From positions 1 through 29,579 of the IMG/VR virus record IMGVR_UViG_3300033124_000357: a stretch of DNA of 29,579 bases; one strand, 5' to 3'. Made by a program: the position numbers and the translations under genes. The notes beneath the pieces are model-generated. The model searched no databases. It was given only the letters and a program-made list of their open reading frames with translations, and was not told the origin of the DNA. Positions 1-29,579 of this stretch are shown one piece after another; positions within the stretch are counted from its first letter, which is position 1, and each line of letters begins with the position of its first letter. This stretch comes from a virus. Its lineage: Duplodnaviria > Caudoviricetes.

Positions 1-113
1 GATTCTGTTAAATCTTCATTTGCTTCAAAAACACGACTATCACGATTAGTGACATCCTCATAAGTCGCAAAACTTACAAATGTTTTATAACTGTATATAA
101 ATGCTCTATTCAT
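1..113 (-). CDS. 5' part of head-tail connector/adaptor protein (continues across the circular junction into 29579..29186; 168 aa in total)
   Basis: ATG at 113 preceded by AAAGGA SD; reads MNRAFIYSYKTFVSFATYEDVTNRDSRVFEANEDLTE with no stop; the last TC plus base 29579 (C) gives Ser, in frame with EINDYLEQASQRILTQIRNT. Directly follows the capsid gene; the 'FATYEDV...LEQASQRI' pattern is typical of adaptor N-termini. Confidence 0.75.
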   Translation of the reverse strand, partial: MNRAFIYSYKTFVSFATYEDVTNRDSRVFEANEDLTE

Positions 114-142
114 TGTGATAGTCCTTTAGATTAATTTAGCAA

Positions 143-1006
143 TTAAGGGTTGATAGTTGAATTGTTGTTCAATGCACGGCCATAGTTGCTCTGTAGAACA
201 CCTGTGCCATAGTATGCTGAACATACAATGTCATCACCCAAGAAACTTGCACGACGCTGTGTTTCAATAGCGATATCACCAATCATACCAAGACCCAACG
301 CATCACGCTGGAAAATAGCACCTAGATAGTTACCTGCTGAACCAGAGTTAGCAATGTTACTAGTTTCATAAACTGGGATACCAGCCAACATACCAACGAA
401 ACCGGCACGCATTGCTTCATTAGCATTCTCGCCGTAAGCACCCATTGTGAATGGAGTGTTACCAGCAGTTGTCAATGCTGACTTCAAGTCATAAGCGATT
501 TCTGGATGAATAACGCAGACCATACCTTCTGTAGGAACAGCACTTGCTTTTAGTAAAGCCACTGATTTGAAAATCTGCTCTGCTGTGATTGTAGTTGTTC
601 CAGCAGTAGGTGCTGTGAAACTACTGAATCTTGCTGTTAAGTCTTGGTCCATTTTGCGAGCAACTGCTTCACCAAATAAACGACCTAGGTCAGCAACAAC
701 ATTACTTGCACTTGCTACACGAGCAAAGTCAGTTAACAATGTGCGGATAGCAACTGGACTAACTGTTAATGTGCCTAGACTTGTAGTTACTTCTGTGTTG
801 TCTACTTCATTACCTTCAGTGATTGCGGCAGCACTCTGTGTTGGATAAATTGGAACTTGAACAACTTTACCTTGTCCTGGAGACAAAGTGTAATTTTTTA
901 CTAGACCACGCATAATACTGCGTTCGCTAGCAACGAACATCGCTTCTTGAACGATTAGGGGTAGCAAGTCGTTAAGACTTGTTGTGGTTGATGGACCGAT
1001 TGCCAT
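143..1006 (-). CDS. major capsid protein (HK97 fold)
   Basis: 287 aa; follows scaffold; AAGGAG SD; typical motifs 'VQVPIY', 'LGRLFGEAVARKMDQD', 'VCVIHPEIAYDL', 'VGMLAGIPVYETSN', 'YYGTGVL'. Confidence 0.9.
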   Translation of the reverse strand: MAIGPSTTTSLNDLLPLIVQEAMFVASERSIMRGLVKNYTLSPGQGKVVQVPIYPTQSAAAITEGNEVDNTEVTTSLGTLTVSPVAIRTLLTDFARVASASNVVADLGRLFGEAVARKMDQDLTARFSSFTAPTAGTTTITAEQIFKSVALLKASAVPTEGMVCVIHPEIAYDLKSALTTAGNTPFTMGAYGENANEAMRAGFVGMLAGIPVYETSNIANSGSAGNYLGAIFQRDALGLGMIGDIAIETQRRASFLGDDIVCSAYYGTGVLQSNYGRALNNNSTINP

Positions 1007-1028
1007 AATAAATTCTCCTTAATGAATT

Positions 1029-1700
1029 TTATCTTAATCCCGCAGTTTTTCTATATTCTGCGTAGATTTTTCTGTCTGCAGGATTTTTCATATCTAGTTT
1101 ACTAATATCAACCTTGCTTGTAGCGTTGCCTGTGACATTGCTTTTAGTATTAGTTGTTGCAGGTGCTGCCGACACAAAATGCGGATTGCTTTGCAGCCAC
1201 GACTGAACAAAACTATCCACACTTACTGGTCTTCCACTGTCATCGTAGCGAACAGAACCTTTTTCATCTAATACTTCAACTTCACCTTCCGGACTAAGTC
1301 TAACTTGATTACGAATCAACGCTTTAACTTGATCTGGATTTACCGCACGATAACGAGCGGCTGCATCTACAATTGGAGTCTCTACTTTGAAACTTTCAAT
1401 TACTCTATCCCTCTTTTGAATTTCTGCATCCTTCTTGGCTGCTAATTCTTGGATAACACGATCAAACTCTCCACGCTTTAGTTGTTGTTCTTGTTGAATC
1501 TTTTGATGCTGACTAACGATTTCTCGTAGTTGCTCTGGATCTCCAAGTTCTTCATACTTGCTGACATATTTCTTTTCTAGTTGACTTTTGGTCTTTGCTA
1601 GAATAGCGTTTACTTCTGCCTGCGTAAAAGTTTTTTCTGTTGCCTGATCATTTTGAGAGTTATCAGTATGCTCTGTTGCCGATGTTTCTTGTTGGGTCAT
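1029..1700 (-). CDS. capsid scaffolding protein
   Basis: 223 aa between portal and capsid; 'KTFTQAEVNAIL' N-terminal motif, coiled coil, 'WLQSNPHFV' motif; GAGGCGAGG SD. Confidence 0.8.
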   Translation of the reverse strand: MTQQETSATEHTDNSQNDQATEKTFTQAEVNAILAKTKSQLEKKYVSKYEELGDPEQLREIVSQHQKIQQEQQLKRGEFDRVIQELAAKKDAEIQKRDRVIESFKVETPIVDAAARYRAVNPDQVKALIRNQVRLSPEGEVEVLDEKGSVRYDDSGRPVSVDSFVQSWLQSNPHFVSAAPATTNTKSNVTGNATSKVDISKLDMKNPADRKIYAEYRKTAGLR

Positions 1701-1757
1701 CGTAGTCCTCGCCTCTTTAAGAGTTTGTTTGTTGAACAGATAATTCTGTTCGTAGTG

Positions 1758-1765
1758 TATTTATA
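1758..1765 (-). promoter_or_regulatory. T4-type late promoter candidate (TATAAATA) for scaffold-capsid operon
   Basis: Exact T4 late consensus in the intergenic gap; no -35 box; followed by hairpin GAACAGA-ATTA-TCTGTTC (1734-1751). Confidence 0.65.
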
Positions 1766-1768
1766 ATA

Positions 1769-3340
1769 TTATTCGCTCATAGGTTCCCAGGCAGCACACC
1801 ACCATACGGCTTTAACAGGTGCGTTGTTCCAGCGTGTGCATAATCCTTCTACATAGTATCCACAGTTCTTACAGTTTTCACTGCCAGTTGCAGGTTCATA
1901 TGCTTGAGGTAAATCTGGACTAATAGGTGTGCCATCAGGATAAGTTCTTGTTATCTCATCTTCATCTGGTTCAGGCTGGCCTTCTTGCTCTGCATATTCT
2001 TCAGCAAGTTCGTGTTCTGGCATTTCAATGTCAATAGTATCCATAACAGCGTTTTCGATTAACAAACGCTTGACTGGATCTTGAACAATCTCACTGGCAG
2101 TTTTCAAATGTGCTAATTCGTGATCTGTGTTCTTTAACGCAAAATTACTTGGATAATCAATTTCACCATCCCAAGTTGCACCCATATAGGTATAGATAAT
2201 CTGCCATACTTGTTCTTCAGCAAGTTCTAAGTTATCAGCAATGCTTGATAGTCTTGCGTTTAGTAATTGGAATTCTGTTTCAATGGCAATGCCTGACATC
2301 TCACGAGTTTCTGTTGATCTTACTGCACCAACATTACCCATTGAGTCAATCATCTTTTTACGATTGTTGATTGAATTATAAATCTTATCAATCTGTCCGC
2401 CTTCAAACTGTAAGACATATGGCTTTAAGTTTGCGTCTAAGTTCTCTTCCATAGTGATAACCTGACCGGCAGCGGCTCCTTGACATTGAGTGCCCGCGGT
2501 AGCAACAAGACTTGGATGTGTATCTAAACGAATACTGTCATAGACTTCACTTAATTCATTGTAAATCATACGCTGTTGGTCAGCAATGTCATCAATCAAT
2601 GAATTACCCAATCCACGCACAGGACTGCGTTCAGCATAAGCACAGACAAATGGTAGATAACCTAGACCATTTGTTTCCACTGTCATATCTGTGACACGCT
2701 CTTGTTGTGTGTCTAAGTTATAAGTTGTTATGCTGTCATATGTCCATTCTTTGACAACGGTTTCAGTGCCGTTGACTTCTTCAACATACTTGATATATTC
2801 TAATTGATAACCACCATTAGGTTGTCTAGCCCAACGCCAATCTGTGACTGCCAATGGATTATACATTGATAGATAAGGTCTGGCATTCATTGCTTGTTCA
2901 TCTGCCAAGGTAACTGCACCAACATCAGGCTTGGCTACGCAGATCCACATATGACCAAATACACTTGACCACTGTGCAACATCTTTCATAAACGCATCCA
3001 TACTGCGTCCATCTAAGTCAGCATCTTCTAGAATGTCTTCAATGGTAAAGTTATTTTCTAAACTACCAAACTCTCGTTTAGGTTCTGTTCTAAACAAGAA
3101 ACTTGTGTATAGACTAATCAAACTACGACATTGATTGTCTAGGGGTGTATTGTTTAATCTAACAGCGTATTGTGTGTCATTTTCTAAGGCATAACGCTGT
3201 AGGTATGCTCCTTCACGATAGGCTTGACCGCCTGTGAAGCTGTCAAGTAGAAACTTCCAGCGTAGTTGATTACGGCTGTAGGTTGTGTTACCACTGGTTG
3301 CCTGTAAGTAGGCATTTTGAAATGTCTGAAGTTCTGCCAT
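1769..3340 (-). CDS. portal protein (SPP1 gp6-like) with C-terminal acidic linker and HiPIP-like Cys4 domain
   Basis: 523 aa directly after terL; portal motifs 'NGLGYLPFV', 'SLIDDIADQQRMIYN', 'SGIAIETEF..LNARL'; C-terminus 'CKNCGYY..GLC..W..PV...WWCAAW'. Confidence 0.88.
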   Translation of the reverse strand: MAELQTFQNAYLQATSGNTTYSRNQLRWKFLLDSFTGGQAYREGAYLQRYALENDTQYAVRLNNTPLDNQCRSLISLYTSFLFRTEPKREFGSLENNFTIEDILEDADLDGRSMDAFMKDVAQWSSVFGHMWICVAKPDVGAVTLADEQAMNARPYLSMYNPLAVTDWRWARQPNGGYQLEYIKYVEEVNGTETVVKEWTYDSITTYNLDTQQERVTDMTVETNGLGYLPFVCAYAERSPVRGLGNSLIDDIADQQRMIYNELSEVYDSIRLDTHPSLVATAGTQCQGAAAGQVITMEENLDANLKPYVLQFEGGQIDKIYNSINNRKKMIDSMGNVGAVRSTETREMSGIAIETEFQLLNARLSSIADNLELAEEQVWQIIYTYMGATWDGEIDYPSNFALKNTDHELAHLKTASEIVQDPVKRLLIENAVMDTIDIEMPEHELAEEYAEQEGQPEPDEDEITRTYPDGTPISPDLPQAYEPATGSENCKNCGYYVEGLCTRWNNAPVKAVWWCAAWEPMSE

Positions 3341-3365
3341 ATTTTAGGCTCCAATATTAGTATAG

Positions 3366-3373
3366 TATTTATG
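3366..3373 (-). promoter_or_regulatory. T4-type late promoter candidate (CATAAATA) for portal
   Basis: 25 nt upstream of the portal ATG; overlaps the terL TAA stop, so it could partly be a stop-codon artefact. Confidence 0.5.
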
Positions 3374-4598
3374 CAAGTTGATGACCGAATGCTCTCGGAG
3401 CAACTCTTTCAACTTCTTTGTTGATAGGAAATAGGAATTGTATTGCATAAGTTAATGCATCAAACATATGGTCAAATCCACTGTCCTTATCTGGTATCTG
3501 GCTATCCGTTTTGTAACAGAATTGCTGTAGGCTTTTTATTGTGTGCTTGCACTTTGGATCAATGTAGAATCTTGTAGTTTTATCATCACGCTGAAAAAAC
3601 AAACTGTTGGCAGCGTTAATACGATCTTTAACCAATGGATGCTGTCTATGATAACGCACAGTGAATCCTGCGTTCTCTAATAACTTTATATCAGTGTTGC
3701 CATTTGCTGAAGTCTTGCGTTGCACACCTGCTGGGTCTGGAAATATCTGTATAGGATTCTTTGGATATCTATTTCTAATCTCATCAATTAGTTCATTAGT
3801 ATTACTACTATTGAGAACAATCTCGTCTATTTGATGTAAACCATCTTTAGTGCGTCGCATCACGCAACACGACATCGGCTGAATATTAAAGTCAGTGCCC
3901 AGTATAAGTTGTTCATTAGGATTCACAGCTTCGGCAGGTTTAACATTGTGTTGACCAAAACTATAAGCAATAATACCTGAGAAGTTTTCAAATGTTGCCA
4001 AGAACTCTTGACTGAATGTTCTTGCATCTAAATCTTCTCTGGCCTGAGCTACTTCATCTTCTGGGACATTGCCACCGTCAACGGTAGTAAATTGAAAACT
4101 CATCCAATTTGTTCTTGTTGTATGGTAGTCATAGATTTCTTTGAACCAATTCATACCTTTTGGTGTGCCTAAGAACAATGCGTGTCCTCCAGTGTCTGCC
4201 AATGTAGGGCGTAATACTTCATACCACGCTTCGCTGTCAATGTCAGCAGCCTCATCTAAAACAATAAAGTTCAATCCTACTCCACGCAGGCTATCATAGT
4301 TGTCAGCACCTCTTAGTGATATCTCTGAACCATTAACTAACTCCAATGTGAGATCTTGCTCATTTACTTTTTTAACCCAATTGATTGAAAGAAGTTTCTT
4401 TTTTAATTTCTTCCAAACAATCTGTTTCGCCATACGGTAAGTTGGAGCGACATACCAAACACGCTGGTCTGGTTGTCTGGCATATTTTGCTAATTCACGG
4501 ATTGCTAAATGTGTCTTGCCAAATCGGCGACCACAGACTGCAACACGGAATCTAAATGGTGCATCCGCTATCATTCGTTGTGCTTTACTCAGTGGCAT
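3369..4598 (-). CDS. terL: terminase large subunit
   Basis: Walker A 'CGRRFGKT', Walker B 'FIVLDEAA', coupling motif 'GTPKGMNWF', nuclease acidic motifs 'GTDFN' and 'DHMFDALTY'. Confidence 0.95.
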   Translation of the reverse strand: MPLSKAQRMIADAPFRFRVAVCGRRFGKTHLAIRELAKYARQPDQRVWYVAPTYRMAKQIVWKKLKKKLLSINWVKKVNEQDLTLELVNGSEISLRGADNYDSLRGVGLNFIVLDEAADIDSEAWYEVLRPTLADTGGHALFLGTPKGMNWFKEIYDYHTTRTNWMSFQFTTVDGGNVPEDEVAQAREDLDARTFSQEFLATFENFSGIIAYSFGQHNVKPAEAVNPNEQLILGTDFNIQPMSCCVMRRTKDGLHQIDEIVLNSSNTNELIDEIRNRYPKNPIQIFPDPAGVQRKTSANGNTDIKLLENAGFTVRYHRQHPLVKDRINAANSLFFQRDDKTTRFYIDPKCKHTIKSLQQFCYKTDSQIPDKDSGFDHMFDALTYAIQFLFPINKEVERVAPRAFGHQLA

Positions 4599-5004
4599 TT
4601 AATTCTTTATATTCATCACGCATATCTGCAAGTTGCTCTTCTGTGGGCTTGTCATCTTCATCATCTGTAAAAGGTAAAACTTTACTGTTGTCAGTGGTCA
4701 TACCATTATCGCTCATTCCCAGCATATTCTTGGCTAAGAAGATTTGAACAGCGGCATTTAAGTTAACACAAGCGTTTTTAAGCATTGCTCTGCGTAAACT
4801 GATTTTCAAGTCCTCTCTGCCCTTTATGAGATTATCCGTAAAATTGTATCTCAGCGTGTCTTCATTGATACCAAACCAATTAGCAATATCTCTGTCTGTG
4901 CAGCCAATTGATGCTAGGTCTTCTACTTCTTGTGGAGGCACAACCACTTTGTTACGACCAACAACTAATCCTGTAACTATTTTAGTGCCTTCGTGAACTG
5001 CCAT
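4585..5004 (-). CDS. terS: terminase small subunit
   Basis: Overlaps terL start; N-terminal HTH 'LASIGCTDRDIANWFGINEDTL' and 'NAAVQIFLAKNMLGMSD' motif typical of small terminases. Confidence 0.8.
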   Translation of the reverse strand: MAVHEGTKIVTGLVVGRNKVVVPPQEVEDLASIGCTDRDIANWFGINEDTLRYNFTDNLIKGREDLKISLRRAMLKNACVNLNAAVQIFLAKNMLGMSDNGMTTDNSKVLPFTDDEDDKPTEEQLADMRDEYKELNATE

Positions 5005-5370: not shown

Positions 5371-5739
5371 TTAACTTTCTATATAAAAATATTGTTCTGA
5401 TTTTTTGTTTAATCTATGATTAATTATCGCTCCACTACAATTATGAGACTGAGCTGCTTCTTTTCTTGAATTAAAAATTCCTAAGGGTGTTTGTATCTTT
5501 CTTATAGATTTGCTATTGCTTTCAGTAGCATTTTCACTACAGGTTATCTTACGCACATTATCAGGATGATAAGGACCAGTGTCTCCAATGCGAGCCATAA
5601 CTAATTGTCCTTTATAAGGACCTCTATTAACAATATCATCTCCCCACCAAGCAAGCCATTCTTCATAGGTAAATTGAAATTCAATCCCCCTTACTTTAGC
5701 GGCTGCTTTTTGAACTGAATATTTGTGTTTATAATTCAT
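5371..5739 (-). CDS. HNH-like (beta-beta-alpha) endonuclease with C-terminal NUMOD1-like HTH; possible homing endonuclease
   Basis: 'RGIEFQFTYEEWLAWW...RG...VMARIGDTGPYHPDNVRKIT..EN' pattern of phage HNH-like proteins; C-terminal 'TPLGIFNSRKEAA..H..S..IINHRL'. Confidence 0.6.
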   Translation of the reverse strand: MNYKHKYSVQKAAAKVRGIEFQFTYEEWLAWWGDDIVNRGPYKGQLVMARIGDTGPYHPDNVRKITCSENATESNSKSIRKIQTPLGIFNSRKEAAQSHNCSGAIINHRLNKKSEQYFYIES

Positions 5740-5741: not shown

Positions 5742-6005
5742 TTATATAATTTTCTTAACGGTAAAATCTTCTGTGAAGAATTGTTGATTTAGCTTCTTAG
5801 CTAAATTACGGGCAGCGGCTAAACTGGGATAAACTATTTTAGGATACTTGATCATTTCGCCCTGTGATGACCAATATCGTTGTCTAATATTAAATGGTTT
5901 ATCTTTGTATAACACAGCATACAAGCCCACCGCTTCTAATATATCTACATCCAAAAAGTCTGTGACTTCTGTTTTTATTATTATGTTTGCTGAGGGTCTA
6001 GTCAT
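5742..6005 (-). CDS. conserved hypothetical phage protein
   Basis: 87 aa; 'MTRP...YAVLYKDKPFN...KYPK..YPS..AARNLAKKLN..F.TEDFTV' resembles, from memory only, a family seen in large aquatic phages. Confidence 0.75.
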   Translation of the reverse strand: MTRPSANIIIKTEVTDFLDVDILEAVGLYAVLYKDKPFNIRQRYWSSQGEMIKYPKIVYPSLAAARNLAKKLNQQFFTEDFTVKKII

Positions 6006-7099: not shown

Positions 7100-7107
7100 T
7101 ATTTAGT
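7100..7107 (-). promoter_or_regulatory. late-promoter-like motif (ACTAAATA)
   Basis: TAAATA core intergenic, 19 nt upstream of ATG 7080, directly ahead of the SD. Confidence 0.5.
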
Positions 7108-7322
7108 TATTTTTTCAGTATTGCTCTTACTTGATCTTTTTTAATCCAATCAATCCAACTACCTGTTTTACGGCATTTGGGATTACCGCAATACAAGCCC
7201 CAATGAGGACCTGCTTGTTTGATTTCTATTTGGCAATTACGATGTAAGTTCTCTCTGGCCAAATTGACTAATTTCGTTGCTGTTCTTTGTTCATCGGGAG
7301 TTAATGCATTATGTATTGTCAT
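7107..7322 (-). CDS. small putative Zn-binding protein
   Basis: 71 aa; 'H..C...GPHWGLYC....C...WIDW' motif; ATGA overlap with polymerase-like gene. Confidence 0.7.
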   Translation of the reverse strand: MTIHNALTPDEQRTATKLVNLARENLHRNCQIEIKQAGPHWGLYCGNPKCRKTGSWIDWIKKDQVRAILKK

Positions 7323-9515: not shown

Positions 9516-9613
9516 ATAGTCTCCTAAAAAATAATAAAACAACGACTACAGTCATTGAGTGTAACCAATAAACTCCTCTTTTGTATTTGCCAATGCTACA
9601 TTGTAGCATAATT

Positions 9614-9621
9614 TATTTATC
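9614..9621 (-). promoter_or_regulatory. late-promoter-like motif (GATAAATA) heading the replication operon
   Basis: Just downstream of the 9653-9680 terminator; followed by palindrome ATGCTACA-N-TGTAGCAT (9593-9609). Confidence 0.5.
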
Positions 9622-9652
9622 ATCGTCAAGTCTTTTTTAGGTTGTTATAGCC

Positions 9653-10878: not shown

Positions 10879-10907
10879 AGTATAACACAGAAGTCAATTT
10901 GTGCCAA
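10879..10907 (-). promoter_or_regulatory. sigma70-type early promoter
   Basis: TTGGCA (10907-10902)-N17-TATACT (10884-10879) with extended TGn. Confidence 0.7.
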
Positions 10908-10948
10908 TTTATTACCCATATATTTTACTCAAGTATTACTCGTGTCCT

Positions 10949-11253: not shown

Positions 11254-11262
11254 TTTTGGCCC

Positions 11263-11292
11263 AAAAAAAAGTGCTACATTTAGTAGCACTTT
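11263..11292 (-). terminator. intrinsic terminator insulating the repeat array
   Basis: AAAGTGCTAC-N5-GTAGCACTTT inverted repeat (11268-11292) with a T8 run on the minus strand. Confidence 0.8.
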
Positions 11293-12501: not shown

Positions 12502-12527
12502 ATCTTTATTTAGATATGACATTCGCT

Positions 12528-12803: not shown

Positions 12804-12804
12804 A

Positions 12805-16892: not shown

Positions 16893-16940
16893 AGTTATTC
16901 TCCTGAGGAAGTAGTAAGGAATCTGCGGACTCCTTACTAT

Positions 16941-16948: not shown

Positions 16949-16952
16949 CGAA

Positions 16953-17117: not shown

Positions 17118-17127
17118 CTTTGTCTCC

Positions 17128-20100: not shown

Positions 20101-22506
20101 CTGATCATATAATAATGTTGTTCCGCTTACAGGTAGTGAGCCTAAGTTTGCCACTGTGACAATATATCTACCAACGCCTCCAGCAACTTCACCACCAGTT
20201 GGTGTAAGTTGACTATCAACTATTACATCACCACTTGTAGATATACTTAAATAATCACCAGCGTTAATTTGATTGTAAGTTGCCGCTGTAACTGTGAGTA
20301 ATCCTTTGCCCACTGGAGCACCATTGCTGCCAGTGCCGGCAACAATACTACCAGTAATATTAAATGGATCCCATCCTTCTGTGTAATATATTTCTGCTTC
20401 ATCAAATGGACCGCCCGTGGCAGGAACATTAAAACTAAACAAAAAGCTAGGAACACTTGCACCAGGAGTTGGATTACTAATAATCGGAGTTACTGGTGCT
20501 GGCAATCCAACACTACTAACTAAATTACCAATCTTAATATTTGCCGCTGTGCTGAATTCTGAGATAGATTCAATAGTATAAGCATCAGCATTGTATTCTA
20601 AGGCCTGTATCTGTGCTACCAATCCACCTTCTTCAGTTTCCTGTTCTTTGACACGCATAGCCCTAAACAGTTTAGGTTCCCAACCATATAAGTCGCTGGT
20701 AACCTGTATAATATCTCCAGCCTGTGTTTGTATGCCATAGTGATTGCTGGTAAATTCAATGACCAAATCATCACGACTTTGTCTTAATTCAATTTGTCCT
20801 AGTAAATCACTTTGTATACTATTGTTACATAAATCCAAGCTCATTCTCAATGTATTATCTGGCTCATTGGGATTTAATTGTAGACTAGGCACAGTTGTTC
20901 TGTAATAAGCCTTTTGATCTTTGTTATACTTGTCGTAGAACTCTACTTCAACTTTATTGTATAAGTCTTCTAATCTAGTTGAACTAATATTGATACCTGA
21001 AATAATGTTATCATCATTGAAGGATAATGTTCCTGTTGTTGGTTGTGTTGCATACCAAGTAGTTGATGCTACTGCACCACCAGCAGTTGATGTTGTGTAT
21101 TTTCCAATTTGTCCAGAAGTATCTCCAACTGCTATCGCTTGTTGTGTTGTAACAGTTCCGCGGAATGATCCATCGCTGGTATATAAAAGTTGTCCTGGTT
21201 CTAATCTACCATTAGGAAATGATGTAACTGTTAATGTTTTATTGGCGTCATTGGCACGACTTGCTGTAAAATAAGTTGTGGCATCTCCTGGCACACCTGC
21301 TGTTACAGCTTTCTTAATCACTGGACTCCATAATCCTGTGGCAACATTATAACTCATCCAAGCACCACCATTTTGTAAAATAGTGTCTATGTTTGTTTTA
21401 ACTTGATTGCTGGTGTCTAGAATACCATTAATTTGATAACGATCTAAGACTTGATCAGCAGTGCCAGCACCACCTGCAGGATCTAAGTTTGCACTGGTAT
21501 AGTTAATGTCTTCAGCACAATAATTATACCAAGCAGTTCTTGCTGTAGAATCAATATCGGCTGCAGGTATACCTGCGCCATAACGCTTTGATGTCATATA
21601 ATCATACCAAACATCAGCAGGATTTGCTATATTGTTGGCTAGTTGGAATGTGACATTGGGTAAACTTGTGAATCCATTTTGAGCATAAGTCATTTTAACA
21701 ATGGCAAATACTAGACCCTTCATTTCATTTGCTGATGTCCAGCTGCCATCATTGTTGCCCCAGAATGTATAAGCATCAACAGTATTACCTGTTGATGGTG
21801 CAGGATAGATTTGATTGACACTACCACTACCACCAGCATAAACACGCAGTTCAACTAAACTATTATTATCAACAATAAAACCTGTATCAATGAAATCTTC
21901 TTCCTGTGCTTGTCCTGTGCCAGAGCCTACACCAGTGGCTGTAAATACTTGTCCAATATTATTTGTTTGTGCACCAATTAATGTAAAGTCAGTTGTGCCT
22001 CTTTTTGTAATAACATAAGTTTTGCCAACAACAAAGCTGCCTGCTGTGACAACTGCGCCATCAACTACTTTTCTACCATCTTTGACTTTGTGTGCGCTAG
22101 TTGTTGCATCAACTGCTGTTAGTCTAAGGTCATTCCATACAACACTTTCTATGCCATAACTAGGTGTTGTTAAGTTATTTGTATATTCACTTAACACCAA
22201 ACAATAATACATTGTATCATTGTTTGTTCCGCCAAGACTTTTTAATCTAGCATCTGTAATGATACCATTTACATATGCACTACCATAAACTACTGGTATC
22301 TTATTGTTGGTTGCTGGTGGAACCTGTATGCGTCCACCCTGTGTGGCTGCACTATTGTTGCCTTTGTTTTGATTGCCATTTATAATTCTTGATGTTATAT
22401 AAGCGGCGCCTGTGGCAACAACTGCTCCAACAACTATTGCGGCTGTGCCTACTAATCCTAATAATGTGCCTGCTACATAGGCTCCAACTGCTGTAAATGC
22501 TGGCAT
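17128..22506 (-). CDS. tail tip / host-specificity protein (lambda gpJ-like hub) with fused fibre extension
   Basis: 1792 aa; hydrophobic N-terminus, 'IPVVYGSAYVNG', 'NPADVWYDYMTSKRYGAG', 'YNKVEVEFYD', 'GDIIQVT...GW..K.FR', 'ALEYNADAY'; C-terminal fibre motifs. Confidence 0.85.
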   Translation of the reverse strand: MPAFTAVGAYVAGTLLGLVGTAAIVVGAVVATGAAYITSRIINGNQNKGNNSAATQGGRIQVPPATNNKIPVVYGSAYVNGIITDARLKSLGGTNNDTMYYCLVLSEYTNNLTTPSYGIESVVWNDLRLTAVDATTSAHKVKDGRKVVDGAVVTAGSFVVGKTYVITKRGTTDFTLIGAQTNNIGQVFTATGVGSGTGQAQEEDFIDTGFIVDNNSLVELRVYAGGSGSVNQIYPAPSTGNTVDAYTFWGNNDGSWTSANEMKGLVFAIVKMTYAQNGFTSLPNVTFQLANNIANPADVWYDYMTSKRYGAGIPAADIDSTARTAWYNYCAEDINYTSANLDPAGGAGTADQVLDRYQINGILDTSNQVKTNIDTILQNGGAWMSYNVATGLWSPVIKKAVTAGVPGDATTYFTASRANDANKTLTVTSFPNGRLEPGQLLYTSDGSFRGTVTTQQAIAVGDTSGQIGKYTTSTAGGAVASTTWYATQPTTGTLSFNDDNIISGINISSTRLEDLYNKVEVEFYDKYNKDQKAYYRTTVPSLQLNPNEPDNTLRMSLDLCNNSIQSDLLGQIELRQSRDDLVIEFTSNHYGIQTQAGDIIQVTSDLYGWEPKLFRAMRVKEQETEEGGLVAQIQALEYNADAYTIESISEFSTAANIKIGNLVSSVGLPAPVTPIISNPTPGASVPSFLFSFNVPATGGPFDEAEIYYTEGWDPFNITGSIVAGTGSNGAPVGKGLLTVTAATYNQINAGDYLSISTSGDVIVDSQLTPTGGEVAGGVGRYIVTVANLGSLPVSGTTLLYDQPIDSDYVFLKKVVPDGNATAFVSPSTVTVRIVELPANSQTYRRYFLKSRLGNKKNFSKFSPTAPFDLDNNINWNPNPTAAGSLADLTDVDLTPPIYDNQALTYDTSTNKWGNHLDLAVYSDSTNPTANTNAFQIYKSYSGAGTIDNGFGVGMQFNVEDTAGNYKMNAGEVLVGTKDKTLGAESYYLSLEVTDGGLPSYVALETSKSDTKIAGNLTINNLQYTNSSIIYAKGAGANSTLTWNGTNWTFANQFGLLNNSTTTPKGVQGEIAGNDYWFVGGYAIGGTTNTGAMVIASGNNGDEPIYVRQYTGGVTTQPFPSTNTVARELTLLDSIGDTILPGTIYGPGADFGNVTIGILTDNTIATTNGPLLLKPNLSTDETIIFSDITRIYPHTTSTSGPGTLTWDATVGQLIVQGVYSATPVPTLNALVHTTVHNVVTPGLMMSTEANVAIANGFGTGIQFYAGSILSSTNVISGDIELILDNDTTADSRFDFRLSRAGTEYVSAKMYSNGDLLINGDLTVIGDGIKSSGSGSGPTTAISLIGTSAAIEGDLTVKDGTLILNSLGGGAVALQSPSSLGPGAYRQFTLPDAYPVSNGYALVSTTAGVLSWAAAAGDVIGPASATDNAVARFNLTTGKLIQNSGVIIDDSNNVTGVNSLTIAGDIIVGDNSIKSGGVGNPIAIQLLDNDVSIQGDLTLVGNRINNNVGYQCITTGGGGFPTITFPTVMTTTPNLTLGNSLKINGSTSGYSQFQAPATGNNIGYVLPGADGTSGQVLSTNGSGTLSWATASGSGSALPAIKSESLAAQPWSTLPGCVILGSIGNSLTITAQQVRYQPFYVSAPITLTEVALQVSTATTLTSCNAMIYIVDVTPSTTGWQPSANRSGGYCGEITNITTTGIKNITGLSISLPAGSYLMAVQFSNYGGTLQCRSIANQVITGNGYCFATSDGTTYAMNRSSVAYVSGTPATAANWSNGAYGNAGHPGVVWAKWTVN

Positions 22507-22507
22507 A

Positions 22508-22957
22508 TCAATTATCCTTTAAGTAAAGTTTCTCTGTAAGCCTGAAACCACGGCGTTCTAAATCATAATCTGTGGTAGATGTCATACGGGTTGTAAAGTA
22601 TCCTTGTATTTGATCCTTGTCCAATAATAGATCACCTTGTTCGCAGAACTTAATAAACAATCTACCTGCACCTAGTGTGCCTCTGTATTCTTCTCTGACA
22701 TACCAAACCAATTCACGCAGACTTGTTTTATTTGGCATCCATACATTTTGTTCTTTGATTGCTATTAGTAATCCAACTGCTACTTGCTCATTAAAATATA
22801 ACCAAATGTATCCGTGATGTAACATTGAGAATACAAGTTTTTTAATGTGTTCTTGATTGATACCATTAGTATGATTATTGTAACTTGTAGATTGTAAAAA
22901 CTCTACTATTAAATCTGTGACAGTATTTAAGTCTGTTCTTGTTGCTAGTCTAATCAT
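22508..22957 (-). CDS. GNAT-fold acetyltransferase-like protein in tail module
   Basis: 'MIRLATRTDL', 'VGLLIA', 'ELVWYVREEYRGTLGAGRLF', 'LERRGFRLTE'. Confidence 0.8.
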   Translation of the reverse strand: MIRLATRTDLNTVTDLIVEFLQSTSYNNHTNGINQEHIKKLVFSMLHHGYIWLYFNEQVAVGLLIAIKEQNVWMPNKTSLRELVWYVREEYRGTLGAGRLFIKFCEQGDLLLDKDQIQGYFTTRMTSTTDYDLERRGFRLTEKLYLKDN

Positions 22958-23862
22958 TATGGAGCACCATACATAGTATAATCATAAGCATCAGTAACTT
23001 GTTGATTGCCTCCACCATCTACGGTGCTGGCAGCTTTGCCTGTGTAAGGTTTGCCAAAGTCAAAACTTTGATTAAACAATGCTTCAACTCTGTTCATACT
23101 TGGATCGGTGCTACTATTGCCTAATTCAGGCCAAACAATTTGATAGTCCTGTTGATTTGTTCTGCGTCCACTTACTTTGTTTTCCAATACACCCATAATA
23201 CTTGACGCAATAATGGTAATAGTATGTGTAACTCCAATATCTTGAGCAAATGTTTCTATGTCTTCTTGCACACTGAAATTACTAACTACACCAGAAAATC
23301 TTTTATAAACTTGATTGGTAATAACTTCCTGTGTATTGTAGTCAAAGAATGCACGATAAATGTTTACATCACCGCCTTTGATCTGTGTGCCCAATACTGC
23401 GGCAATGTATGTTGGAGGTATAGCACTTAGACTTACCTGCACTTCATCATTGCTGTTACTGATGTTATTTTGTATTTCACTGATTGTTAAGAAACCAGCC
23501 AATGCTTGATATGTTTTACTGTTATGCGTGACTTCTTTATAACAATTACTGATATAATAAGTTACACTGATAATACCTGCCTGTGTTTGACTGCCTGTGG
23601 CAGCACTGGCATAACTTACGCTACTTGTGGTTGCTGCCGTGACTACGAATGTTCCATTGTATGTTGCGGGTTCCATATTGCTGACTGTGATAGTATCGCC
23701 TATGGCAAATGGTGCTGTTGCCTGTGTGGCAAAAGTTATCGTAGCTGTTGATCCTGTGCCACTGGCGCCAGTTGTAGGATTAATTGCTATCAATGTTAGA
23801 TCAATTAAAACACCGTGTTCAATCTTGCGTTCTGTGTCTACTGCAGAAATAACTGTGGTCAT
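22957..23862 (-). CDS. minor tail / hub protein (gpL / DUF2163-like) with inserted beta-sandwich
   Basis: 'YQALAGFLTISEIQ', 'VSLSAIP', 'VNIYRAFFD', 'RFSG', 'GRRTN', 'D.SM.RV', 'FDFGK'; position after distal tail gene. Confidence 0.7.
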   Translation of the reverse strand: MTTVISAVDTERKIEHGVLIDLTLIAINPTTGASGTGSTATITFATQATAPFAIGDTITVSNMEPATYNGTFVVTAATTSSVSYASAATGSQTQAGIISVTYYISNCYKEVTHNSKTYQALAGFLTISEIQNNISNSNDEVQVSLSAIPPTYIAAVLGTQIKGGDVNIYRAFFDYNTQEVITNQVYKRFSGVVSNFSVQEDIETFAQDIGVTHTITIIASSIMGVLENKVSGRRTNQQDYQIVWPELGNSSTDPSMNRVEALFNQSFDFGKPYTGKAASTVDGGGNQQVTDAYDYTMYGAP

Positions 23863-24842
23863 AATATTTCCTCAATTAATTCAATGTCGCTGGTTAGTTC
23901 TACAAGTTGTCCAGGTAGATATCTAATCTGTGGTAGTTTGGTTACTATAACATTAAATGAAGCCGCTCTAGCACCAACACGAACTATTATATCAGCACCA
24001 ACAATGCTGCCAATATAACCTCTATGAATAGGAATAGCCACACAAGGAGTTGCTGTATTTCCGGTGCCGCTGAATGTCAATGAACCTGCTGTGCAATCTG
24101 TGGTGCTGACAATAATAAAAGTTGTAGAACTAAGAATACTTTCAATATAAGTTATACCACCAAATACACCAGTGCCTGCTGTTTTAGTTAATAATTGTCC
24201 AACACTTAGACCTGTAGTAGTCCCTGTAGTAAGAGTCACACCAGTTCTAGTTGCTGTGGTTAAAATAGTGTTATTTGATAAACCTTCTTGAACATTAAAT
24301 CTAACTCCGGCTGCTGAAATTGTTCCTACTCTGCCAGTAAATGCTGTAGGAATAATAACATCACTGGTAGCAATATATGGATATCTTTGACCTGCTGGAC
24401 GAAGATAGTCGCCTGCTTTAACTAAAAATAATCCAGGAGTAATAGTTGTTGCATTGTTATATGATAAAATAATTCTTGTTCCAGCAGTAGCACTTGTGGC
24501 ATAATAACTGTCAATGTTATTATCACTAGTAGGAGCATCAGCATTACCTTGATAGTTGACCATCCAACTATTACCCAATGTAGCTATACCAGTTGTTCCA
24601 TTTACATTATTCAATTCTATACCGTGTGTTTCATATTTGTCACGATCTAACAATGTTTCAAATGCCGCTCTATACTCACTGGCAGTCCAAACAGGTTTAG
24701 GCGTAATTACAAATCTAAATGGATTAGCCCAGTTACGACTTGCAACACTGATACGCCCACTGCGGCTAACAGTTTGTGCTACTAACTTACTGCGATTAAC
24801 TTCAATGTTTGTCGCGGTGTCTATAATATCTTGTAAAGCCAT
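23859..24842 (-). CDS. distal tail protein (Dit-like) with insertions
   Basis: Directly after tape measure; 'QTVSRSGRI', 'KAGDYL', C-terminal 'IELIEEIL'. Confidence 0.65.
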   Translation of the reverse strand: MALQDIIDTATNIEVNRSKLVAQTVSRSGRISVASRNWANPFRFVITPKPVWTASEYRAAFETLLDRDKYETHGIELNNVNGTTGIATLGNSWMVNYQGNADAPTSDNNIDSYYATSATAGTRIILSYNNATTITPGLFLVKAGDYLRPAGQRYPYIATSDVIIPTAFTGRVGTISAAGVRFNVQEGLSNNTILTTATRTGVTLTTGTTTGLSVGQLLTKTAGTGVFGGITYIESILSSTTFIIVSTTDCTAGSLTFSGTGNTATPCVAIPIHRGYIGSIVGADIIVRVGARAASFNVIVTKLPQIRYLPGQLVELTSDIELIEEIL

Positions 24843-27223
24843 TATCTTCTACTCCTTATTGGCATACTACGACGCCCTTGTTCACTGACATTATGTAAAA
24901 ACTCTGGATCACGAGCTAACAGTGTTTTGAAACTACTGGCATCAACTGCTTGAATACTGTATGTTACTGCTGTTGTATTATTATTAACAACAGGTTGTCC
25001 CATACTTAATTGATGATTAGGAACAATACGACCAGCACTTTGTGGAACAAATAGTTCTGGACCACGCTCGCCTACAATACTTGCTTGTCCTACTGGAGGC
25101 ATACCACCATTAGCAAATCCAAATAGTTTACCTATGCTGCCAAATAATCCGCCACCCATACCGCCGCCAAACAGTCCACTTAGCATTTTCTGTGCTTGCA
25201 CTCTAGCAAAGTCAGCAATCATACTGTTAGCAAGGTCCTTGATTGATAATTTACCAGTTTGAACAAACTTAACAAACGCATCTTCAAAGCCTTTGGTAAA
25301 GTTACTGAATTGTTGTGCGGCATATTCAGCATCTGTTTTAATATTGTTGCGAAACTTTTCTCCAGCATTGGACCAACCATAAGCAAAACTTTCTTGTTCT
25401 GCCTTTGTAGCGGCTGCTGTTTCTTCAATCTTAGCACGACGAGTATCATATAACGCATTAATTTCTTCCATCTTTTGCTTCATACCACCAACACCTTCAA
25501 ATGGTAGGTTTTGTATTTTCTGTATGGCTTCTAACTGTGTTTTGCGTTGTTGTTCTAAGTCAAATAACTTTTTAATATTTTCTTGATCACTACCACGCAA
25601 GTTTTGAATACTCTTTTCAAGTTGTTCGCGTTGTGTTATTAAATCTAAGGCATCTGCCTGTGCTTTAACCTGTTCAAATGCACTTACTCTTGCTTGATCC
25701 TGTGTGCTTTGGAAGCTGGCTATCTCTGCTTGATATTGAGCCATTTGTTCCATATAATCAAGAATGTTTTTAACTTCTTGTTGCTGTCTTGCGTATTCAC
25801 GGGTTTGTTCTCGTGTAATGTTAAAAATATCAAGTTCACTGTTACGAAGTTCTTCTAAGTTGGCAATCTCTTTATTGATTAAGGCCAGTGTTGCACCTTT
25901 GGCACCTTTTTTCTTTTCTTCTAATTGTGCTGTTTGGTCAGCATAGCGTTTGTTAATATCCGCTGTGCCTTTGATAATATCTTGTTCATCTTTGCTTTTG
26001 CCTAACATTTCAACTTCTGTGGTTAAGCGATCCATATTGGCCTGTGCGGCTCTACGATAACCATCAGCAAGATTTTGAACAGCGTTAAGTTGACTTTGTA
26101 ATTCTTTACCTATTGCAACAGCTCTTCCTTTTTGTTTTTCTAATTCATCGCCTGTTTTTGTTACGGCTGCGGCTTTTTCACCCTCAAGATTTAATGCATA
26201 GGCAGTTGCGGCTACACCACCTGCTAATCCAAGACCACCTGCGGCTGCACCGGCAGCACTAACTTTTTCTGCGGCAGTTAGCGGCACCTTTTTCATTACA
26301 GTTTCGCCACCTTTAAGTGTTTCGCGAACTAATCTAAATCCACTTGCTAATGCTTGCACACCTTTAACTGCGGCACCAATTAAAGTAACAAATGTTCTTA
26401 AACCTGTAGCAACAAAAACACCAATAATAATTGCGGCTAATACTTTGAATCCTGTAATTAAACTTGGCATTTGTTCTAATAACTTTGCCATACCTTGTAT
26501 CATTGGGCCAAATGCTTCTAAGAATGCTAAACGAATCTTAAAGATACTTTGTTCCCATTGATCATTAAGAGCGGCTGCTCGTTCAATGTCTGCGGCTTGT
26601 TTTTCAAATGTTCCGCGTAATGCTTCAAGTTGTTGAGAAAACTTTTCAGGACTTACACCTATCATTGATTTGCCAAATATATCTATTGCCAATGCTGTTT
26701 TAGTAGCAGGATCAGTAATACCTTTTAATCCATTTGCGGCTTGGTCAAATAATTCAACTGGTGTTCCAGTTTTAAGCATATCAAAAGAAATGCCTAATTT
26801 ACTCAATGCTAATTGTGTTTTATCACTACCTTGTGCTGCTTCATCTATACTTTTATAAAATTGAGTAATAAGTTTGCTGGCATCATCTGCTTTACCGCCA
26901 CTGGCTATTAAAGCATTTTGTATTTCAATAATTTTAGGAATAGTCATATCCGTAGCATCTGCTAAATCAGCAATAGCATCTGCGGCTGCAATAGCACTAC
27001 GACCAAAACTTACTAATGCCGCACCAACTAATGCTGCCTTAAGTTTAGTCATCCCTGTGAATAACTTATCTGCTTTACTACTTAGATTATCAAATGCACG
27101 ATCTACATCTTTGGCACCTGCCACAGCATCCTTGTTAAACTGTTTGGTAGCATCATCGGCAGCTTTAATACCGCGAATATAACCTTGATTATCTATTTCA
27201 AGCGTAACTTTTAAGTTTGCCAT
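24842..27223 (-). CDS. tail tape measure protein
   Basis: 793 aa, Ala/Lys/Gln-rich helical; lambda-type C-terminal 'FEDAFVKFVQTGKLSIKDLANSMIADF' and 'FANGG...VGERGPELFVP..AG.IVPN'. Confidence 0.93.
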   Translation of the reverse strand: MANLKVTLEIDNQGYIRGIKAADDATKQFNKDAVAGAKDVDRAFDNLSSKADKLFTGMTKLKAALVGAALVSFGRSAIAAADAIADLADATDMTIPKIIEIQNALIASGGKADDASKLITQFYKSIDEAAQGSDKTQLALSKLGISFDMLKTGTPVELFDQAANGLKGITDPATKTALAIDIFGKSMIGVSPEKFSQQLEALRGTFEKQAADIERAAALNDQWEQSIFKIRLAFLEAFGPMIQGMAKLLEQMPSLITGFKVLAAIIIGVFVATGLRTFVTLIGAAVKGVQALASGFRLVRETLKGGETVMKKVPLTAAEKVSAAGAAAGGLGLAGGVAATAYALNLEGEKAAAVTKTGDELEKQKGRAVAIGKELQSQLNAVQNLADGYRRAAQANMDRLTTEVEMLGKSKDEQDIIKGTADINKRYADQTAQLEEKKKGAKGATLALINKEIANLEELRNSELDIFNITREQTREYARQQQEVKNILDYMEQMAQYQAEIASFQSTQDQARVSAFEQVKAQADALDLITQREQLEKSIQNLRGSDQENIKKLFDLEQQRKTQLEAIQKIQNLPFEGVGGMKQKMEEINALYDTRRAKIEETAAATKAEQESFAYGWSNAGEKFRNNIKTDAEYAAQQFSNFTKGFEDAFVKFVQTGKLSIKDLANSMIADFARVQAQKMLSGLFGGGMGGGLFGSIGKLFGFANGGMPPVGQASIVGERGPELFVPQSAGRIVPNHQLSMGQPVVNNNTTAVTYSIQAVDASSFKTLLARDPEFLHNVSEQGRRSMPIRSRR

Positions 27224-27513
27224 TATTTAATTTTTCCTATTAAATCATCTATGCGTTTTTCTAAAAACTTTTCAGTGGGTGCAGTCATACCTTTTGGTGC
27301 TTGACGACTATAACCTTCATCCAAGCGTTCAGCATAAGCATAATTAGCATCAATGGTATTACCACGCAGACTTGTGCTTCGGCGAGCATTACCAGTGCGT
27401 ATTGGTGTGCTGTCAACAAAATAGTCATAAGTTTCTTTAACTAATGTTTTACTCACTGTTTCAGCTTCTTCAAACATCTTACTTACTTCTCTCATATTAA
27501 AGTTTAGTGCCAT
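27223..27513 (-). CDS. HK97 gp10-like tail completion/neck protein
   Basis: 'TPIRTGNARRS', 'YAYAERLDEGYSRQAPKGM' motifs. Confidence 0.75.
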   Translation of the reverse strand: MALNFNMREVSKMFEEAETVSKTLVKETYDYFVDSTPIRTGNARRSTSLRGNTIDANYAYAERLDEGYSRQAPKGMTAPTEKFLEKRIDDLIGKIK

Positions 27514-27763
27514 CTTTTTTATTGACCCTTTCCATTACTGCCATCAAGTCTTCTTGACTGGCTTTAACTGGTGCCTTCTTACCATCTGCCTTGTCCTGCA
27601 TATAAGTTTGGAAACCTAATGCCGCATCCAATACTACTAAATCAAATGTGGAAGCCTTGGACATTACTTCGCTGGGCAATAAACTATAACGCTTCCCTAG
27701 TGCATCTATGCTTAACAGCATTGACATTTCAACACCTTCGGGATCCAAGTCTTCCTGTGTTAC
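27497..27763 (-). CDS. tail assembly chaperone C-terminal (gpT-like) frame, reached by -1 frameshift
   Basis: -1 frame open from the slippery site (KVTQEDLDPEG...); 'LGKRYSLLPSEV' typical of gpT-like segments. Confidence 0.8.
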   Translation of the reverse strand, partial: VTQEDLDPEGVEMSMLLSIDALGKRYSLLPSEVMSKASTFDLVVLDAALGFQTYMQDKADGKKAPVKASQEDLMAVMERVNKKDGTKL

Positions 27764-28056
27764 TTTCCCAATGTTTCTACTACCTTACCTATTACTCTAG
27801 TTAAAATATTACTGGGTAATAGATATCCATCCTTGACAATTGGCGAACCATCTTCATCAAGAATCATTTTATTCACTATCTCAACCATATCACCAAAGTC
27901 TTCACTTTTCATAGTTGCCATCTTTACGAATACATCCATACCGGTGCGGTCGTAGATCCAGAACTCAAGTGGCTCACCATATTCTTTAATAGTGTCTTCA
28001 TCTGTGAGTTCTACTTTTACTAACTCTGGTTTTTTGCTTAGTTGTGTTAATTTCAT
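27760..28056 (-). CDS. tail assembly chaperone (gpG-like)
   Basis: 98 aa between tube and tape measure; 'ILDEDGSP'; ends in slippery site. Confidence 0.8.
   Translation of the reverse strand: MKLTQLSKKPELVKVELTDEDTIKEYGEPLEFWIYDRTGMDVFVKMATMKSEDFGDMVEIVNKMILDEDGSPIVKDGYLLPSNILTRVIGKVVETLGK
27763..27769 (-). other. programmed -1 ribosomal frameshift site G GGA AAG
   Basis: TTG GGA AAG TAA ends the chaperone ORF; heptamer identical to the lambda G/GT site. Confidence 0.85.
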
Positions 28057-28229
28057 TTCATATCCTCATATCGTTGTTTTAAGTAATGAATAGTTGCTAG
28101 TGCAAACTTCATTCTAACTTCTGCTTGTTCCAAATCCTTTTTGGCACATCTAATCTCGCTAAGTGCTTTAGCAACTTCGCCTTCTATACTGCGGAATATC
28201 TCATCTTCAGTTTTATCATCAAATATCAT
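28053..28229 (-). CDS. small helical protein (58 aa, not in ORF track)
   Basis: MIFDDKTEDEIFRSIEGEVAKALSEIRCAKKDLEQAEVRMKFALATIHYLKQRYEDMK; GAGGAG SD; ATGA overlap with chaperone. Confidence 0.75.
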   Translation of the reverse strand: MIFDDKTEDEIFRSIEGEVAKALSEIRCAKKDLEQAEVRMKFALATIHYLKQRYEDMK

Positions 28230-28245
28230 AATAACTCCTCACAGT

Positions 28246-28253
28246 TATTTATA
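28246..28253 (-). promoter_or_regulatory. T4-type late promoter candidate (TATAAATA)
   Basis: Exact consensus just after the tube-gene terminator and 5 nt before the GAGGAG SD. Confidence 0.65.
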
Positions 28254-28265
28254 CATTATTTCAGC

Positions 28266-28292
28266 CAAAGAAAAAGGATCACTAGGATCCTT
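28266..28292 (-). terminator. intrinsic terminator after tail tube gene
   Basis: AAGGATC-CTAGT-GATCCTT followed by TTTCTTT. Confidence 0.6.
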
Positions 28293-28314
28293 AATCTCTT
28301 CCCATCCCTGAGAA

Positions 28315-28782
28315 TTAAGCTACTGTGTAGTTACCTGTTACAGTTAATGTAACTGGAGATACCCATACTGGAGCGTCTGCTGATACAGTTGGAGCCAAGC
28401 CAGTAATGTAAGCAACACCTGTTAAAGTTTTGCCTGCACCGCCTGTGCTTGTATCACCCATATAAAGAGTGAAATCAACTGCTCTCTTGTTTTGACTTAG
28501 ACCAAAAATACCTTCTTTGATAGCCACATCTGTGCCTGTGCCTGTGCCAAAGAATTTAACTTGATCAAGAACTAAGTTCAAGTCTAAACTATTTGTTGCT
28601 GTTGTAGGAATCTGTAGTTTAGACTCTTCGTCTAACTGTGTCCAAGTGAATACATCCGTTGCGGCGTTTACAGTAATATCTTGTATTGCTGGAACCAACA
28701 AACCGGAAGTGTCACCAGTAACACGAATAGCCAATGTCATTTCTACATTTTCTACGCCTGGTGCTGGAAATATGAAAGCCAT
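28315..28782 (-). CDS. major tail tube protein
   Basis: 155 aa; 'GVAYITGLAPTVSADAPVWVSPVTLTVTG' lambda gpV/TP901-like C-terminus; position before chaperone. Confidence 0.85.
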   Translation of the reverse strand: MAFIFPAPGVENVEMTLAIRVTGDTSGLLVPAIQDITVNAATDVFTWTQLDEESKLQIPTTATNSLDLNLVLDQVKFFGTGTGTDVAIKEGIFGLSQNKRAVDFTLYMGDTSTGGAGKTLTGVAYITGLAPTVSADAPVWVSPVTLTVTGNYTVA

Positions 28783-28796
28783 ATTATTTTTTTCCT

Positions 28797-29189
28797 TTAT
28801 GCTAAATTAGCGAATCTATATTCGCCTTCATAGACAACTCTGTCGTTGTCTATGCTGACTGTATAGTCAAACAAGCGTGTATAAACGCCTGTGATGGTAG
28901 TGATATCCTTAGCACTACCTAAAATTGTCAATGCTGAATCTAAGTCTTGATTGCGATTTTTGGCATCAACTGTTAAGAACCATCTTACAATAGTTACTCG
29001 TTGATTGATTTGCAAACTGCCTAGTGTAGGCAACAGCGTGTCTTCTTCCGTATAAGGTTCATCAAGATATACTCTACGAGCATTCTTCATATACAGTGGA
29101 TTAGTTCCTTCTTGAAAAGGCAGTTCCTGACTGGTCTTGATAGATTCAGTCAGTTGTGCCGTCAAATAAGTTAATAATTCTGTTCTCAT
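28797..29189 (-). CDS. putative tail terminator protein
   Basis: 130 aa directly before tube; 'MRTELLTYLTAQL' N-terminal helix and terminal beta strand. Mainly a positional call. Confidence 0.55.
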   Translation of the reverse strand: MRTELLTYLTAQLTESIKTSQELPFQEGTNPLYMKNARRVYLDEPYTEEDTLLPTLGSLQINQRVTIVRWFLTVDAKNRNQDLDSALTILGSAKDITTITGVYTRLFDYTVSIDNDRVVYEGEYRFANLA

Positions 29190-29579
29190 CTTACACGAAC
29201 TCTATTTACAAAAGTAGCCATCTTGTCACTAGTATCAATGGTGCCATTTTCGCTGAAGTCATACCAGTCTCCGGCTTCAATTACTTCGTCAAATAATACA
29301 TTATAGCTGTCCTTGTAGAACTTAATTTTTGCAAATTCAGCACTGTCAGGATTGCCAAAGTCAGCAACTGTAGGATACACATATTCCATTAATGCGAAAT
29401 ACACATTAAGGTCTTTGAACTCCTGCGTTCTGGCTAATATATAATCTGGATTAACAGCGGGTAGTAGGTTTGGATTTGTGATCTGTGCCATTCTACGCTG
29501 ATACTCTCTCCACCACTCGGTATTTCGGATTTGTGTCAAAATACGCTGACTGGCTTGTTCTAAGTAATCGTTGATTTCG
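29186..29579 (-). CDS. 3' part of head-tail connector/adaptor protein (starts at 113 across the junction)
   Basis: Frame open to the window edge and in phase with 113..1; 'WYDFSENGTID' D-x-D-G-like C-terminal motif seen in adaptors. Confidence 0.75.
   Translation of the reverse strand, partial: EINDYLEQASQRILTQIRNTEWWREYQRRMAQITNPNLLPAVNPDYILARTQEFKDLNVYFALMEYVYPTVADFGNPDSAEFAKIKFYKDSYNVLFDEVIEAGDWYDFSENGTIDTSDKMATFVNRVRVR

Follow-up and report, generated by a model that had tools for sequence, protein, structure and literature searches.

Virophages such as Sputnik and mavirus build their own virions and carry late promoters of the helper's type, and helper-activated late promoters occur in P4 as well as in virophages. 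Among phages of bacteria, the Streptomyces satellites MiniFlayer and MulchRoom are reported to have their own encapsidation genes and a large virulent helper, and MiniFlayer is described as non-integrating (PMC10690885). Here we describe IMG/VR record IMGVR_UViG_3300033124_000357, the genome of a tailed virus (Caudoviricetes), analysed over its whole length of 29,579 bases (the window). The genome is likely that of a satellite phage that makes its own particles and initiates its own replication, taking late transcription, and probably also lysis, from a large phage encoding gp55. The initial annotation had proposed that transcription of the virion genes depends on a gp55-type sigma factor supplied in trans by a T4-like phage. 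This core proposal gained support from the conservation of a promoter motif, TAAATA, from controls, from promoter geometry and from the absence of gp55, and a gene that the genome shares with gp55-encoding jumbo phages adds to it. Of the findings named beforehand as refuting it, an encoded sigma or RNA polymerase that could act as reader and a lack of motif conservation were looked for, and neither was obtained.

Like MiniFlayer and MulchRoom, the present genome encodes its own capsid and packaging genes, and the earlier statement that known satellites lack virion genes overlooked these two systems (PMC10690885). They are reported as 14.8-17.4 kb long with no obvious replicases, whereas the genome studied here measures 29.6 kb and encodes, besides a probable primase, a full long tail. 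In contrast to the MiniFlayer type it carries a predicted replication gene, which its kin G004 and DSL-LC06 apparently do without. The dependence proposed here concerns late transcription and lysis, and the word 'promoter' does not occur in the main text on MiniFlayer (PMC10690885). Unlike PICI, P4 and PLE satellites, the genome holds a full virion module and no integrase was found in it. Unlike virophages, it would combine a bacterial host and a tailed virion with host RNA polymerase (RNAP) and a helper sigma factor instead of a viral factory. The accessible text of PMC9004378 and PMC7318152 does not describe TAAATA, and that of the latter reports sigma70-like promoters alone. A literature search, with most subscription journals outside its coverage, returned no complete phage relying on a helper's gp55. 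Full-virion satellites are already known (MiniFlayer, PMC10690885; apparently also EPIPs), and reliance on a helper's late sigma appears in none of the literature searched.

The record is a complete, circular genome, as first suggested. An open reading frame (ORF) of 168 aa bridges the record ends intact and is 91% identical to relatives over its full length, which indicates circular completeness, and near-identical DNA was present in 30 of 30 bins of positions 1-20000 in each of four sequencing runs. At least half of the sampled words occurred in 12 of 20 listed runs, riverine metagenomes included; RNA runs contained only 5-7% of them. Every called gene lies on the minus strand. The expectation of a wholly encoded virion was likewise borne out, as Pfam and PHROGs identify a full siphovirus module of major capsid protein (MCP), scaffold, portal, TerL, TerS, neck, tape measure and tail protein. 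Head and packaging genes occupy 143..5004 (MCP 143-1006, scaffold 1029-1700, portal 1769-3340, TerL 3369-4598, TerS 4585-5004). Profile matches place fibre, tail tip, tape measure, neck, tail tube and head-completion genes in 13041..29579, the final ORF of this block beginning at 113, across the origin. Further matches comprise two HNH nucleases, an acetyltransferase, a peptidase-like gene and a holin-like gene.

Transcription units had been described as headed by TATAAATA/nnTAAATA boxes with no -35 element. TAAATA and the missing -35 both stood, and the octamer did not: TATAAATA occurs three times against 3.59 expected by chance and was rejected as a motif in favour of TAAATA, one copy (5739) being the stop/start junction of an HNH gene. 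TAAATA is depleted genome-wide (19 sites against 42.1+/-6.0 in shuffles), and 16 of the 19 lie on the coding strand. Five of the 19 fall 9-100 nt upstream of a called start, compared with 68 of 654 sites (10%) for 14 anagram hexamers (p=0.045).

The comparison with relatives is decisive. For 80 loci retrieved via MCP, distinct upstream regions were compared, which amounts to the conservation check that had been proposed for the motif. TAAATA stood upstream of scaffold in 45/45 regions, g58 in 34/42, portal in 17/30 and pep95 in 7/7; upstream of internal genes it was found in 0/48 (MCP), 0/37 (tail tube) and 0/21 (TerL). The scaffold box is kept although scaffold identity drops to 51%, and the portal box is retained where the upstream gene differs (L003, L065).

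Seven or eight of the window's sites look functional by these comparisons, all on the minus strand. A late-type promoter of octamer form at 1758..1765 precedes scaffold, MCP and head-completion genes, with TAAATA 37-70 nt upstream in the relatives, and a second octamer at 28246..28253 heads g58 and the tail operon. TAAATA lies upstream of portal at 3366..3371, overlapping the TerL stop, and heads the pep95...TerS/TerL unit at 7100..7105. The box at 16941..16946 heads g167 and the fibre unit at 54 nt, against 55-65 nt in G001, G002, G004, G010 and G053. At 12507..12512 the box sits 11 nt upstream of ATG 12501 and is the likely leaderless start of an endonuclease-like gene, whose homologues have it at 10-11 nt (G005, G053). 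A box at 9614..9619, of presumed function, falls between the -35 and -10 elements of the replication operon's sigma70-type promoter, and a possible promoter of g130 and the tail tube gene at 29203..29208 recurs in 11/52 relatives, always at 19 nt. Four further sites, at 5368, 5739, 9778 and 27224, coincide in part with stop codons and count as candidates.

The pattern extends to a guild of small phages, defined here as 29 IMG/VR records picked by length (8 via MCP and 21, out of 47 searched, via the window's 549-aa ORF) plus the metagenome-assembled genome DSL-LC06. These comprise at least four virion modules and range from 32 to 58% GC. TAAATA was enriched before starts in 27 of the 30 small genomes (anagram-controlled, p<0.05 each, uncorrected) and in 1/13 small control phages, where the signal came from 2 of just 3 sites; both gp55 phages put through the same test were enriched. 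DSL-LC06 ('Nanhuiviridae', PMC10611076) and the cultured Pelagibacter phages of the HTVC111P group have head and packaging genes related to those of the window (MCP 42-49%, portal 40-43%). DSL-LC06 has the TAAATA pattern, and the main text describing it mentions neither promoters nor satellites (PMC10611076). In the HTVC111P group, which has the head module in common with the window (MCP 46-49%), the pattern is absent, and the group carries a lysozyme, a helix-turn-helix (HTH) regulator and DnaD. Two proviruses, G044 in Sphingobium yanoikuyae (L179-L181) and G041 in a Sphingomonas cluster (L175-L176), with 53-58% GC, have TAAATA upstream of most virion genes and an endolysin on the opposite strand; G044 also carries an integrase and an HTH-looking ORF. 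These sphingomonad proviruses are a culturable test system.

A TTGACA-like hexamer (at most one mismatch) accompanies 8 of 222 TAAATA sites in 31 genomes, and the distance to ATG is 10-11 nt at 29 sites and 13-20 nt at 8, followed by a broad peak at 21-33 nt. T4 late boxes are reported to have TA at -13/-12 and no -35 (PMC2988020), so TAAATA would occupy -11..-6; the small-phage spacing fits a T4 late promoter, and the 11-nt class would then comprise leaderless mRNAs starting according to T4 geometry. As in the T4 late system of gp55, gp33 and gp45 (PMC2988020), a -10-type box without -35 stands upstream of late genes, with AT-rich downstream sequence and the same position relative to the inferred start. 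Unlike in T4, TAAATA alone is fixed here and gp55 is not encoded. The two preceding bases vary in the small phages, as they do in the gp55-encoding phages phiM12, DSL-LC03, PA5oct and Atu_ph07.

Reading of TAAATA by a host sigma factor, for example as a -10-only promoter in Alphaproteobacteria, would make a helper unnecessary. Guild proviruses are indeed found in sphingomonads, and alphaproteobacterial -10 boxes frequently lack the -7T. We nevertheless regard this as highly unlikely: the motif is an exact six bases with -35 hexamers this rare, the 4-5-nt spacer to a leaderless ATG is below the usual sigma70 spacing, and no use of TAAATA is seen in the Pelagibacter phages that share the head module. 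Constitutive virion promoters in a prophage would also need a repressor, and none was recognised.

A reader encoded by the genome itself was searched for and not found. In six-frame searches, gp55 (phrog_234) and Sigma70_r2 matched 0/40 small genomes with phiM12 positive, and the jumbo-type late sigma phrog_12791 matched 0/39, positives being obtained in gp55-type jumbo phages. With these positive controls working, the window lacks the gp55 that would mark it as a T4-like phage itself. Pfam and PHROGs recognised no sigma, HTH, integrase, repressor, helicase, clamp or endolysin among its 40 ORFs, and NCBIfam on 28 of them added nothing. Neither a sigma factor nor a regulator of transcription emerged when Pfam was run on 300 guild proteins, mostly taken from 422 cluster representatives, and the sole HTH match among them also fits terminase small subunits. 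The earlier list of absent functions holds for sigma, clamp, helicase, integrase and repressor in these family and six-frame searches; its claim of no primase is made doubtful by a family-A polymerase fold.

That fold belongs to the product of the 549-aa ORF at 7319..8959 (minus strand), a probable primase or replication initiator according to its predicted structure. The model (pLDDT 83.9) matches Klenow with Z 14.9, a root-mean-square deviation (rmsd) of 6.2 and 286 aligned residues, and the fold matches cover residues 181-503. R264, D291, K343 and D468 are invariant across 84 sequences. The core features of TV-Pol were found (the Arg, two palm Asp, the fingers motif, no nuclease domain), and the protein resembles TV-Pol and CCPol in its minimal family-A core and thumb, conserved Arg, two palm Asp and basic fingers motif (PMC2579912, PMC7581432). 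TV-Pol is reported from the Sputnik virophage (PMC2579912), and the SCCmec family-A polymerase is reported to prime DNA together with a partner (PMC7581432). Structural look-alikes include polinton-like-virus D5/DUF5906 fusions, which fits the TV-Pol assignment (PMC2579912). Unlike TV-Pol and CCPol, the protein, whose activity is predicted, showed no sequence-level match, D5 fusion or neighbour, or MP/SSB partner; no D5 helicase or recombinase linkage was seen in the genome, and in G030 an integrase lies near the polymerase-fold gene. The family's sequence profile gave 0 matches against the PDB, placing it by fold alone. In GTDB genomes 35 pattern matches appeared and none was confirmed, plasmids gave none, and no small-phage member occurred among 50,697 phage records. 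Shorter divergent relatives of 268-362 aa occur in G001, G003, G008 and G051.

The same protein invites another explanation, in which the phage is autonomous and TAAATA is read by a small unrecognised protein of its own, or by the polymerase-fold protein if this works as a miniature RNA polymerase. Its fold also resembles T7 (Z 10.2), mitochondrial (10.1) and N4 (6.8-7.1) RNAPs, most polymerase-bearing genomes use TAAATA, and many ORFs are unannotated. This account is unlikely. In close kin the polymerase slot holds a D5-type primase (G006, phrog_1156; G010), a P-loop-looking protein (G016) or nothing evident (G053), and boxes upstream of scaffold, TerS and other genes are found in three genomes that have no polymerase-fold protein, namely G004 (terminal repeats), DSL-LC06 (circular) and G002. 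Because kin swap or lack the protein yet retain the boxes, it was rejected as their reader, and no other non-virion cluster spans the four virion modules. G042, considered as a counterexample with the polymerase and no TAAATA, is ambiguous and may be two adjacent elements; G002 has two tail-module copies and may be chimeric.

Replication, said earlier to wait on the helper's late machinery, is probably partly self-initiated, since the TV-Pol-like gene sits behind a promoter of sigma70 type. This promoter (9600..9629, minus strand; TTGACG-18-TGnTACAAT) precedes g122, g63, the polymerase-fold gene and g71, and a second (10879..10907, minus strand; TTGGCA-17-TGnTATACT) precedes four small early genes; both are consensus matches, of which the genome has 16 against 22.6 in shuffles. 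The polymerase-fold gene lies downstream of six 50-59-nt repeats at 10935..11271, likely origin iterons; they were rejected as a CRISPR array, the spacers being short and repeated. Palindromes at 9593-9609 and 11268-11292 share GCTAC...GTAGC, and one overlaps the -10 box of the replication operon, where it forms a possible operator.

The identity of the helper is suggested by an 87-aa gene, g87 (5742..6005, minus strand). Its matches among the 50,697 phage records were 13/13 phages of 284-490 kb, Atu_ph07 and the PA5oct group, and environmental homologues lie on contigs of up to 524 kb. PA5oct and Atu_ph07 each encode a gp55-type sigma and are enriched for TAAATA (p 1e-5 and p 1.7e-33); a late sigma is present in 6/11 large g87 carriers and in all three complete ones. 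TAAATA precedes the large-phage g87 homologues in 76 of 78 distinct upstream regions, with box distances split likewise into 11-15 nt and then 22 nt and beyond. The T4-like helper first envisaged thus stands as a gp55-type large phage, with g87 sharing making a PA5oct/Atu_ph07-like jumbo phage more likely than classical T4. A fold search with g87 was uninformative (best Z 5.2, Tic22, rmsd 2.3, 55 aligned). In PA5oct and Atu_ph07 the g87 homologue lies a few genes past RNase H / 5'-3' exonuclease (L280, L281), a place that in T4 holds dsbA and gene 33.

For lysis, a holin-like gene was identified at 12528..12824 on the minus strand (phrog_1193, PHROG 'hemolysin' family, E 3.7e-6), and no endolysin was found beside it. 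In six frames, phage lysozyme matched neither this genome nor any of 23 near-complete guild records, and Glyco_hydro_108 gave no match anywhere, controls included. These results bear on a facultative alternative, a slow solo cycle by sigma70 read-through in which TAAATA sustains transcription after a T4-type takeover of host RNAP. All genes lie on one strand downstream of sigma70-type promoters, the phage encodes a replication protein itself, and endolysins are present in part of the guild, all of which would suit it. We consider it decidedly unlikely, given that units end in terminator-like hairpins at 11710, 11292 and 9680, that neither antiterminator nor endolysin was recognised, and that the polymerase family lacks a small-phage member among the phage records searched.

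Several other genes vary between strains or are shared across the guild. An optional HNH endonuclease (5371..5739, minus strand), whose best-ranked cultured matches are 136-175-kb phages, is missing in co-occurring strains (joint 5299-5736) and was accordingly rejected as a required regulator; Vibrio PS32B.1 has the HNH in common and lacks the promoter pattern. IMG/VR relatives of the HNH and of the fibre N-part lie on contigs below 58 kb and so do not tie the genome directly to any large phage, and fibre matches among cultured phages are small unrelated phages. The fibre gene contains 162-nt repeats (15211-16031) whose copy number differs between strains. The product of 11749-12501, downstream of the likely leaderless late promoter, has a GIY-YIG/NUMOD-like feature match and could be a nuclease against helper DNA. 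No protein cluster is common to all guild genomes, the widest being the polymerase-fold family (26/32 clustered genomes). Compared with 5004-7322, G046 and G048-G051 show g72, g73, g87, pep95 and fibre genes common to siphovirus- and podovirus-type members, and this cross-module sharing suggests common hosts or helpers. A ferritin-like gene (cluster 24; L159:2276-2710) occurs in 9 guild genomes. G004 (L136-L137) and DSL-LC06 (L129) are complete genomes of 27-30 kb in which no replication, lysis or regulatory genes were recognised.

We infer from genes and motifs that this phage depends on a helper, and the following cycle is proposed. The phage would enter by its own tail, with host sigma70 transcribing the early genes and the replication operon. 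The TV-Pol-like protein would prime at the iteron repeats, with helicase and processive polymerase supplied by host or helper. A helper gp55-like sigma on host RNAP would then fire the observed TAAATA promoters, leaderless ones included. Packaging would use the phage's own terminase, and exit the helper's endolysin. As integrase and partition gene are absent, persistence would probably be by co-infection or a short episomal state; some guild members may wait as integrated prophages.

A number of observations weigh against this interpretation. Helper dependence is here a prediction from genes and motifs, and the window's own TAAATA signal is weak at its p=0.045, so that the case rests on relatives. 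The guild genomes are related and hence not independent counts, their genes were predicted with a simple caller, and G004, G038 and G042 fall short of p<0.05. The 10-11-nt peak is nearly missing in whole-genome scans of four gp55 phages, and late transcription in T4 is reported to need a clamp loaded onto DNA that is being replicated (PMC2988020), a demand that the satellite would also have to satisfy. For most small ORFs no family match was obtained, and an unrecognised activator could hide there. The g87 proteins are 38-41% identical, and their sharing could be ordinary gene flow and does not prove co-infection. The six-frame lysin search covered two families, one without a positive control, and the endolysins of proviruses G041 and G044 show that not every guild member depends on a helper for lysis.

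This virophage-like lifestyle appears to be common to dozens of small phages. We lean towards a widespread, polyphyletic 'virophage' guild of 24-48 kb with at least four unrelated virion modules, free or integrated, with a late programme that answers to the gp55-type sigma of T4-type and jumbo phages. Such phages would fire only under attack by one of these, parasitising the attacker and perhaps shielding the host population as a result. The guild would be recognisable by TAAATA promoters without gp55, a simple sequence rule for finding such phages. If this view is correct, the virophage strategy of an own virion with the helper's late promoters extends to bacteriophages, and it explains abundant aquatic phages without regulators, lysins or a cultured member in the searched collection. 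For the integrated members, the trigger of the prophage would be the sigma factor of an attacker and not host stress. Small phages now taken for independent lytic viruses would turn out to parasitise jumbo phages, altering the view of viral top-down control in freshwater.

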